Below, in pieces: positions 15,310-17,453 of a stretch of 64,000 nucleotides of DNA. How positions within the stretch are numbered: the stretch's first letter is position 1; each line of letters opens with the position of its first letter. This stretch comes from Escherichia coli (lineage in GTDB: Bacteria; Pseudomonadota; Gammaproteobacteria; Enterobacterales; Enterobacteriaceae): assembly GCF_024223415.1 (NCBI RefSeq), contig NZ_CP100500.1. One strand, written 5' to 3'. Below the pieces are notes generated by a model that was given only the letters and a program-made list of their open reading frames with translations, searched no databases and was not told where the DNA came from. A program made the translations under genes and the position numbers.

Positions 15310-17453
15310 TTACCAGCTATATTTCACTCCCAGCATGCCCTGAGTATCGCTATAGCCTTTATCACCTAGTTGCACACCGACATTCCCCCACAGGCTAAGG
15401 TTGTTATTTACTTTCGCCTCAACCCCGGTACGTACTTCACCGAGATTACGCGCACCATCACGGCTTACGGTTTGACCATTCATCTTCACGGCGTAGACTT
15501 TGCTATTGTTGATCCAGTTCGCTTCAATGTAAGGCTGGAACTCACGCTGTTTACCATCGTCACGCTGGTGATGGCTAATCAGGTAGGTTTTCACCCCAAG
15601 TCGCGTTTGCACGTTTCCGTTGCCTTCCGTTTCAATGCGCGTTCCGTCTTTCCGGGCATGGTCAGAATCTTTCACACCCATCCAGGTGATTTGCGCCTGT
15701 GGCTGGACGTACCAGGTATTCAGCGTCCCTTCGCTGCCGCTAAATGTTCCCGCTTCAAAGGTATACCCACCCTCAACAGAGGCCGTCACACCGCGAGAAT
15801 CATAGTCGTCAGCAGAACGGTTATCGGAACTGACGCTGTTATCAAACCAGTTATACAGCGCCCAGCTGTCAACATAAGCGCCGGTCTTATTCGCATCGTT
15901 CTGATACCAGGTCGCGTACAGCCCAGCGCTGTAACCGCTGATGCGCCCATCCGATTTATAACCCACACGATTACTCTGAGTATTACTGTGCTGATTGGCG
16001 TAGCCTGCCATCACGCCAAGATGCCAGCGATCCTGCGCGTTGCTACTCCACTGCGCCAAATCGCCGCCTAGCTGCAATACATAGCGGTTAGCCTGAGTAT
16101 TTAGCTGGCCGTCTCCGGCACTGGAACGTTCGTGCCCCCCGACATGACGCATCCACATACTGCTTGCTGAACCCTGAGAATGCAGTGAATCTGTATATTG
16201 CGGCTCACCCAGACGGTCGTGTAAGCGATGGCTAAACAGCGAGTTGGCTGCGGCAATGTTGCTGATATAGCTTCCGGCCTCCGGGCGATAAACTGATGGG
16301 TAATGTTGCCTGTGCCTGTTTCTTTCATTCCCGCAGTGATAATTCCCGAATCTACTTTGCCTTCACGCGAGACATTAAGTTCACCGTCGCCAGCATCACC
16401 GATATAGATATAGCGGAAAGCTTCGCCCGTTCCGAGGAAATCCCAATGCCCTTTATCGGTCACGTTGACGACACCGTGGGAACCGTCCTGAACGCCCACC
16501 AATGAATATTCTTTGTTATTAATTAGTCCATTATTGGAAATATTGACTGCGCCATTACCGAAATATCCATTATAGAGTCTGCGTACCGTGATGACAGAGT
16601 CTTGATCCTGCACATTCAGGGTTCCGACACCGGTGGCATTGCCACCGATAATCGTATTTTCAGCCGTAATCAGCCCACCCTCGCGAATAGTCGCCTCCCC
16701 AGTTCCTTGATTACCAATTTGAAATTCAATTGAGGAATCATTATTTTTTATTAGCCACTCGCCACCCTTTTCAACGACAACCTTACCATTACTGTTCGCT
16801 TGATATCCTAAAATGGCGACTATTGAACTCGTGACGTAACCCTTATCCGTAATATTTAATGAGCCCGTACCGTAACTCCCTATTTCGAATAATTCGGTCG
16901 TCAAAACCGAGTCCTCTCCTTCAACATTAACCGTCCCGACGCCTGCAGCTTGAGTACCTAATCTTAAATAGCCTCCATCGACGTGACCCTTCTGTTTAAT
17001 ATTCAGCGTCCCCGTTCCGGATTGACCCACATTTAAAGGCCTTGCATTATTTCCGCTATCATACAATCGCCAGGTGCCACCCAAAACATTAACGGTACCC
17101 TCCGAATCCTCATTACCGCCAATGACGCTGGTAGTAATAGTGGTTAAGGAGGCATTACCGCCAGCCAAAATATTAAGCACTCCAGTGCCATACCAGCCAA
17201 CCAGGTAGGCATCATAAGCAACATCAGTATCAATATTGGTAATCTGACCATTATCAACTTCCAGACTCGCACCAGACACTGAACCGCTTAGTGCCAGCAA
17301 AACACCCAGCGTCAATCTACTGAATTTCGTTGTCAGTCCAGAGGATTTTCGCAAATTAACCGTTGATGTTTTACCTACCCTGCGAGTTAATTCCGAGCAG
17401 GCCTGAAATACCTGTAGAGTGCAATTCCATATCACGCGATAGATTCTATTCAT
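15310..17453 (-). pseudogene. yneO: autotransporter adhesin split by a single frameshift
   Basis: 450-aa N-terminal ORF (signal peptide, repetitive Gly-rich passenger) and 282-aa C-terminal ORF (beta-barrel ending …GVKYSW) in different frames; both open across 16101..16362; total span not divisible by 3. Confidence 0.75.

Follow-up and report, generated by a model that had tools for sequence, protein, structure and literature searches.

A 3.3-kb internal deletion very probably inactivated a yneO/ECSE_1600-family autotransporter gene in Escherichia coli

Introduction

Secretion by the type Va pathway proceeds from Sec export via a signal peptide, through barrel insertion, to translocation of the passenger through or alongside the barrel. 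In Neisseria meningitidis, two autotransporters are phase-variable through repeat tracts, NalP at a poly-C tract and AutA at AAGC repeats. Here, we analyze an autotransporter gene that lies in two open reading frames (ORFs) at 15310..17453 on the minus strand of a 64,000-nucleotide stretch of Escherichia coli DNA (assembly GCF_024223415.1, contig NZ_CP100500.1; hereafter the window). An initial annotation had read this pair as an autotransporter of roughly 714 aa inactivated by a single 1-nt indel, and as phase-variable or recently decayed. Our analysis indicates that the gene, a member of the yneO/ECSE_1600 family, was very probably killed by a recent, single 3,277-bp internal deletion and is an ordinary dead gene in two pieces, not a switchable frameshift.

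Other alleles of this gene have been described. In the genome paper of strain SE11, ECSE_1600 (1,806 aa) is listed as intact in two strains, SE11 and HS, and as disrupted in three, MG1655, E24377A, and O157 Sakai; B2 strains are listed as lacking it, and the same paper notes that E. coli autotransporters are often pseudogenes (PMC2608844). In K-12 MG1655, the gene is the annotated pseudogene yneO (b4696; 5,422 bp, once split into ydeK and ydeU), which lies at the same locus between hipB and lsrK, has the same promoter region, and is also inactive. In the literature library that was searched, queries on the function of ydeK, yneO, or ECSE_1600 surfaced no functional study, only the SE11 genome paper and genomic-SELEX tables.

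The window allele resembles each of these systems in part. Its retained parts share ~97.7% nucleotide identity with K-12 yneO, but the K-12 gene still has its full 5.4 kb and owes its inactivation to a single additional G in a poly-G run (G8, gene ~3949–3956), whereas the window allele has lost 3,277 bp that include that site. ECSE_1600 of SE11 and the intact alleles of strains SCU-316, KV7, and O103:H2 12009 are orthologous; against them, the window allele lacks residues 386–1477 and is frameshifted. AIDA-I, the diffuse adherence adhesin, has the same type Va architecture with an alignable linker and barrel, but its passenger differs, and it is plasmid-encoded, glycosylated, and functional, whereas the window locus is chromosomal and broken. 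The likeness to NalP and AutA is a type V gene whose frame is interrupted between passenger and barrel. Those genes switch by gain or loss of one repeat unit at a long tract and thereby regain the full protein; the window gene has no tract at the lesion, and 60% of its product is gone.

Results

The Two ORFs Are Separated Ends of One Autotransporter Gene

The two minus-strand ORFs lie in different frames, with 450 aa encoded at 16101..17453 and 282 aa at 15310..16158. The N-terminal ORF carries an ESPR domain (Pfam PF13018, residues 1–47, E 5.6e-15) and five T5SS/PEP-CTERM repeats (TIGR04393, E 1.4e-37). The C-terminal ORF matches the autotransporter β-domain (Pfam PF03797, E 9.5e-43) and NF033176 auto_AIDA-I (E 2e-69), and ends in GVKYSW. 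Its frame stays open upstream as far as 16362, the last stop standing at 16363–16365, so that neither frame has a stop in 16104..16362. From 15310 to 17453, the pair covers 2,144 nt (714 × 3 + 2), a length not divisible by 3. To this extent—two ORFs in different frames, their domains and terminal motif, the shared open stretch, and an inactivated autotransporter adhesin with ESPR and PF03797 in disrupted frames—the ORF list and the Pfam and NCBIfam scans bear out the initial annotation.

Flanking genes identify the locus as that of E. coli yneO: lsrK stands on one side and hipBA on the other, within the synteny lsrRK–gene–hipBA–ydeQRST (fimbrial genes) known from K-12, and gene order at the locus is the same in SCU-316, KV7, O103 12009, and K-12. 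The NCBIfam model NF011422, "ECSE_1600 family autotransporter" (1,806 positions), is matched at positions 1–386 by the N-terminal ORF and at 1525–1806 by the C-terminal ORF. Because both match separated ends of one model, some 1,100 codons are missing between them. Even added together, the two scores (842.7 and 656.1 bits) fall short of the curated threshold, 2,335 bits, a shortfall to be expected of a remnant.

Orthology with the ECSE_1600 family and yneO follows from position between lsrK and hipB and from nucleotide identity, the retained 2,144 nt being 100% identical to the KV7 allele. The two-ORF pattern is not a chance arrangement, because its halves are 99.9–100% identical to the ends of an annotated intact gene. 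The locus is the E. coli chromosomal yneO/ECSE_1600-family gene, encoding an AIDA-I-type (type Va) autotransporter adhesin normally of 5,421 bp and 1,806 aa, rather than the product of ~714 aa first proposed.

The Frame Change Coincides with a 3,277-bp Deletion

Alignment of the window to the intact allele of O103:H2 strain 12009 (5,421 bp) yields two blocks free of gaps, nt 1–1154 and 4431–5421, that overlap in a single C; the blastn blocks meet at window 16300, and base-level extension from both ends likewise overlaps by 1 nt. The missing segment is 3,277 bp long (gene nt 1155–4431), or 1,092 codons plus 1 nt. Because 3,277 = 3 × 1,092 + 1, the extra nucleotide shifts the linker and barrel out of frame. 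The retained parts contain no further indel and no premature stop. The 5′ part is ungapped and 100% identical to KV7, with one single-nucleotide polymorphism (SNP; window 16469) against SCU-316, and the 3′ part is 100% identical to both. Multiple disabling lesions, which would point to long-standing decay, are absent: comparison with intact alleles reveals only one, and it is this deletion instead of a 1-nt indel. The parts of the gene are arranged as follows.

16300..17453, minus strand: retained 5′ part; intact-gene nt 1–1154, residues 1–385, with ESPR and five passenger repeats
17313–17453, minus strand: ESPR signal peptide, residues 1–47
16299..16301, minus strand: deletion junction, reading ...GGCAACATTAC then CCATCAGTTT... 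on the gene strand; intact-gene nt 1154 joined to nt 4431, with the shared C at window 16300
16101..16299, minus strand: out-of-frame tail of the 450-aa ORF; 65 foreign residues (HQFIARRPEAIS...PETAS) and a stop, by translation linker/barrel DNA in the wrong frame
15310..16300, minus strand: retained 3′ part; intact-gene nt 4431–5421, residues 1478–1806 and stop, with the linker YRPEAGSY...ANSLF and the β-barrel, out of frame with the 5′ part
15379..16158, minus strand: PF03797 β-domain; residues 1–260 of the 282-aa ORF, equal to intact residues 1525–1784

The junction sequence is ATTAC/CCATC, in which the only run is CCC, and no homopolymer or short tandem repeat occurs there. The right breakpoint lies 3 residues ahead of the YRPEAGSY...ANSLF segment. 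The contexts of the two breakpoints show no homology (local alignment score 22; shuffled sequences average 18.8 and reach 29), and the intact gene is free of exact repeats of at least 14 bases. For want of breakpoint homology and long exact repeats, homologous recombination between passenger repeats and collapse by the assembler both fail as explanations. The deletion looks illegitimate, single, and non-homologous.

The proposal of a ~714-aa autotransporter turned off by a 1-nt indel, possibly a reversible phase-variable frameshift, has several observations in its favor. Both frames are open over 16104–16362, where a +1 insertion gives a 714-aa ORF; a G6 run exists at 16135–16140; and small frameshifts in other alleles of the gene do sit in poly-G runs. 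The proposal is nevertheless extremely unlikely. The frame change falls exactly at the deletion junction, and apart from the junction, what remains of the gene matches an intact allele base for base, with no gap. Full-length family members of about 714 aa were not encountered: the model has 1,806 positions, and 1,327 aa is the length encoded by the single shortened allele whose coding sequence (CDS) is annotated without interruption. The homopolymer or short repeat that the initial annotation suggested seeking at the lesion is missing from the junction; the G6 run lies 160 nt downstream and is ordinary coding sequence in intact alleles, and the poly-G sites that do vary (gene 1314, 3831, and 3949) have all been deleted. 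Runs of at least 5 in the window gene are limited to A6 (16749), G6 (16140), and G5 (15389), of which the A6 is, like the G6, ordinary coding sequence.

The allele also departs from a contingency gene in each respect that we compared. There is no repeat tract at the site of the frame change; relatives differ by the 3,277-bp block and not by repeat units, and an independent assembly has the identical junction; and the ON frame would not yield a complete protein. A +1 slip anywhere in 16104..16362 produces a single 714-aa ORF that lacks 1,092 residues (386–1477), the autochaperone among them. At window 16135–16140, the sole G6 run of the overlap, which falls in the first barrel strand, a slip would swap the linker (helix) for 53 nonsense residues. 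Frame repair would not recreate the adhesin.

The Deletion Is Real, Young, and Restricted to Few Isolates

A 22-kb query (window 6000–28000) matches SCU-316 and KV7 at 100.0% identity, with 6 and 9 SNPs, respectively. The matching span in both is 25,278 bp, or 22,001 + 3,277, and each carries an annotated intact 5,421-bp CDS. Over window 1–55443, no other structural difference from SCU-316 comes near the deletion in size. The loss is recent, because near-identical relatives (SCU-316 and KV7) keep the gene intact. Recent decay, one half of the earlier proposal, is supported by these two strains, whereas phase variation is not supported for this allele, whose junction has no slippery tract beyond CCC.

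Megablast against 5,426 complete E. coli genomes located the region in 4,368, nearly all of them matching in two places split at window 16300; a junction-centred search of the same genomes found none that spans the junction. An exact scan for the junction gave 0 matches in Genome Taxonomy Database (GTDB) species representatives and 0 in Joint Genome Institute (JGI) metagenome contigs. The exact 450-aa junction-specific product nonetheless occurs on several independently assembled contigs, 9 in one search and, with NCBI SRA07433.1 and Logan together, 7 in another. In the Logan assembly of SRR36098277, the junction is identical, and 13.3 kb align with 1 mismatch. Because the junction-specific product recurs on independently assembled contigs, the deletion is real.

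These data bear directly on whether the full 5.4-kb gene is present and its repetitive passenger was collapsed by the assembler. The passenger is indeed repetitive at the protein level, and six A/T-homopolymer contractions relative to SCU-316 hint at sequencing noise in one assembly. Collapse requires DNA repeats, however, and the gene has no exact repeat of at least 14 bases, while its breakpoints share 1 nt and no local homology; the same junction-specific protein on several independent contigs, and the exact repetition of the junction in the Logan assembly, make an artefact very unlikely.

Some considerations weigh against the account of a recent deletion. Its apparent recency, judged by sequence comparison, comes from two close relatives. 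The absence of the junction from complete genomes, GTDB representatives, and JGI metagenomes means that the allele is rare. In the source strain, the deletion is confirmed only indirectly, via other assemblies that share the junction. As to mechanism, the one junction would fit illegitimate recombination or replication error alike. We conclude that the deletion is real, young, and limited to a small group of isolates.

The Deletion Removed the Autochaperone and Left the Translocation Unit Out of Frame

In the intact allele, Pfam domains map to residues 1–47 (ESPR), 1253–1281 (PATR), 1332–1438 (AC_1 autochaperone), 1335–1452 (Pertactin), and 1525–1784 (β-domain). The deleted residues 386–1477 make up 60% of the protein and include PATR, the whole autochaperone, and the pertactin-like region; with them went most of the β-helical passenger. 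Measured against the type Va layout, the window allele retains the N-terminal Sec signal peptide, of the extended ESPR type. It no longer has barrel and passenger on one polypeptide, since PF03797 stands in another frame than the signal peptide and passenger, and it has lost the autochaperone/junction region of the AIDA-I/pertactin type, AC_1 and Pertactin both lying inside the deleted segment. The YRPEAGSY...ANSLF linker and barrel align with the AIDA-I transport unit (PDB 4MEE, E 1e-70). The translocation unit is physically complete yet out of frame.

The established type Va secretion pathway suggests what would become of the fragments. If silencing by H-NS were lifted, the 450-aa fragment (385 native and 65 nonsense residues) could be synthesized and reach the periplasm, but would go no farther because it has no barrel for surface transport. 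The barrel ORF, with neither a signal peptide nor an obvious Shine-Dalgarno sequence, would be inert.

The promoter, ribosome-binding site, and ESPR signal peptide are all intact and the allele persists in several sequenced isolates, as would be expected had the truncated pieces kept or gained a function, be it as a periplasmic or released 450-aa repeat protein or as a mini-autotransporter made by ribosomal frameshifting. Such a function is scarcely credible: the 65-aa tail comes from barrel DNA read out of frame and bears no mark of selection, the junction has no frameshift-stimulating motif, no Rfam element was found, the autochaperone is gone, and the allele is too young, its retained parts being those of KV7, for persistence to imply selection.

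The 450-aa fragment bears the NCBI name "lipoprotein," which we reject because the signal-peptide cleavage region (...LALSGSVSGASLEV) has no cysteine. At 90% identity, the protein cluster of the N-terminal fragment (16104–17453, minus strand) counts 128 proteins; those listed, 15 in all, are 302 to 1,067 aa long and go under names that include "lipoprotein," "transporter," and "hypothetical protein." Remnants of the yneO pseudogene are widely mis-annotated as separate genes.

Putative Expression Signals Upstream of the Gene Are Conserved

Upstream and downstream of the coding fragments, four elements were located.

17454..17966, minus strand: lsrK–yneO intergenic spacer with the promoter region of the gene; 513 bp, 31.4% GC against 48.3% for the window (0.29–0.36 in 300-nt windows)
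17507..17535, minus strand: sigma-70 promoter-like CTGACA-17-TTTAAT; one exact match in the window, 0.02 expected by chance
17461..17464, minus strand: Shine-Dalgarno-like GGAG, 7 nt upstream of the ATG at 17451–17453; kept in 4 of 4 aligned alleles
15276..15300, minus strand: putative terminator, a GC-rich hairpin (GCCGCATG-9 nt-CATGCGGC) 10 nt past the stop codon; read from sequence, with a predicted function

The promoter-like element has a published counterpart: in the genomic-SELEX study of Shimada et al. 2014, CTGACA-17-TTTAAT in the K-12 yneO–lsrK spacer is the RpoD (sigma-70) promoter of yneO and is flagged HNS (PMC3946193). The element is invariant among the window, SCU-316, K-12, and O103, and is a candidate promoter in the window. 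An AT-rich, silenced promoter had also been part of the initial annotation. The AT-richness is evident; as to silencing, the HNS flag on the K-12 spacer (PMC3946193), together with 31% GC upstream and an identical promoter sequence, would be consistent with repression by H-NS in the window as well.

A consensus scan for promoters and terminators gave no enrichment over shuffles. It missed the published promoter, whose −35 and −10 elements are weak and which was retrieved with the exact published pattern, and it did not report the hairpin at 15276..15300, giving instead a weaker terminator site at 15241–15255. An Rfam scan of 14800–18300 at E ≤ 1 returned no match.

The spacer is the same as that of SCU-316 and is 17 bp shorter than those of K-12 and O103. 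The 17-bp segment (TATTCTTATTTCCCTTC-like) would fall between positions 17913 and 17914, shortly after the lsrK stop; the window, SCU-316, and KV7 lack it, and K-12, O103, and O157 have it. This lineage-specific difference is ~380 bp away from the yneO promoter, on its upstream side.

The Gene Is Broken Repeatedly and in Different Ways Across E. coli

The gene is found in 4,363 of the 5,426 complete genomes, 3,953 of which hold at least 80% of its length. Forty records taken at even intervals from that search comprised 18 alleles of the canonical 5,421 bp, 12 that were off by 1, 2, or 8 nt, 3 with insertion sequence (IS) elements, and 7 with large deletions or truncations. Ten other shortened alleles were mapped (E24377A, TW14425, SA31-1, PE164, FDN-11, OkiPb01694, CFSAN027346, O157:H7 4276, Z1322HEC0001, and CH4796); all are internal passenger deletions at the same locus, each with different breakpoints, bringing the non-homologous internal deletions in the gene to 11 with that of the window. 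In E24377A, the deletion is in frame (1,437 bp, gene 2565–3997), and the annotated uninterrupted 1,327-aa protein keeps the autochaperone region; judged by its sequence, this natural "mini" allele might still function. The window allele adds another independent lesion to those of a gene already recognized as pseudogene-prone and is not a new kind of element.

In all seven 1–2-nt frameshift alleles that were sampled, the indel falls within a poly-G run. Three such runs are involved, at intact-gene 1314–1320, 3831–3838, and 3949–3955, which all fall within the segment deleted from the window. At gene ~3949, K-12 has G8, and in-frame alleles have G6A or G7. At 3831–3838, the in-frame state is G8, and variants have G7 (two strains), G6 (one), or G9 (two). 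At 1314, one strain has G8 in place of G7. The O157 strain YB14-1 carries an 8-bp tandem duplication instead of a poly-G indel. In the lineage of the window, the main poly-G tract, the one with G6 to G9 variants, is synonymously interrupted (GGGTGGTG), and the gene was then lost by deletion.

These poly-G differences could mark slippage hot spots, and some may be homopolymer sequencing errors of single assemblies. The pattern is known from sampled alleles, as BLAST summary counts cannot separate 1-nt tract variants across all genomes. The locus as a whole, as distinct from this allele, is conceivably a recurrent target of inactivation in E. coli, through selection against a large surface protein or through contingency-like ON/OFF switching at the poly-G tracts; we regard this as a tentative and rather unlikely proposal. 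To our knowledge, ON/OFF switching at poly-G tracts is rare in E. coli.

Other Differences in the Window

Elsewhere in the window, dgcZ (ORF 42813–43721, minus strand) has a 26-bp tandem duplication (CCGGTTTGCTTACCCTCATACATTGC twice) relative to SCU-316 at 42851–42876, near its 3′ end. In the diguanylate cyclase DgcZ, the C-terminal 16 residues (RNRCMFIDEQNVINRV) thereby give way to a different 20-residue tail, and the upstream GGDEF region is unaffected.

Small indels relative to SCU-316 are A or T homopolymer contractions in the window in all six cases (e.g., T7 to T5 and A8 to A5), located after 3066, 3079, 44593, 44629, 52290, and 52705, and they appear intergenic by the SCU-316 annotation. 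That they run in one direction suggests sequencing error in one of the two assemblies.

SNP density against SCU-316 jumps from ~52.2 kb onward, with 53 SNPs in 3 kb, in the region 52200–64000. From ~55.4 kb, the window enters the tail-fibre/tail region of a lambdoid (Qin-like) prophage that is only 88–96% identical, with gaps. The divergence over ~52.2–64 kb indicates a different prophage variant or a recombination boundary.

Discussion

The appropriate label for this locus is a yneO/ECSE_1600-family autotransporter pseudogene with an internal 3.3-kb deletion, in place of two genes, a "lipoprotein," or a phase-variable adhesin. Its unique junction, absent from the 5,426 complete genomes and common to a small number of sequenced isolates, might be used to mark the clone.

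The allele has little importance beyond correct annotation, the frequent disruption of the gene having been documented already. Numerous separate deletions and frameshifts at poly-G runs, all in a single adhesin gene, flesh out the published view of E. coli autotransporters as pseudogene-prone (PMC2608844).
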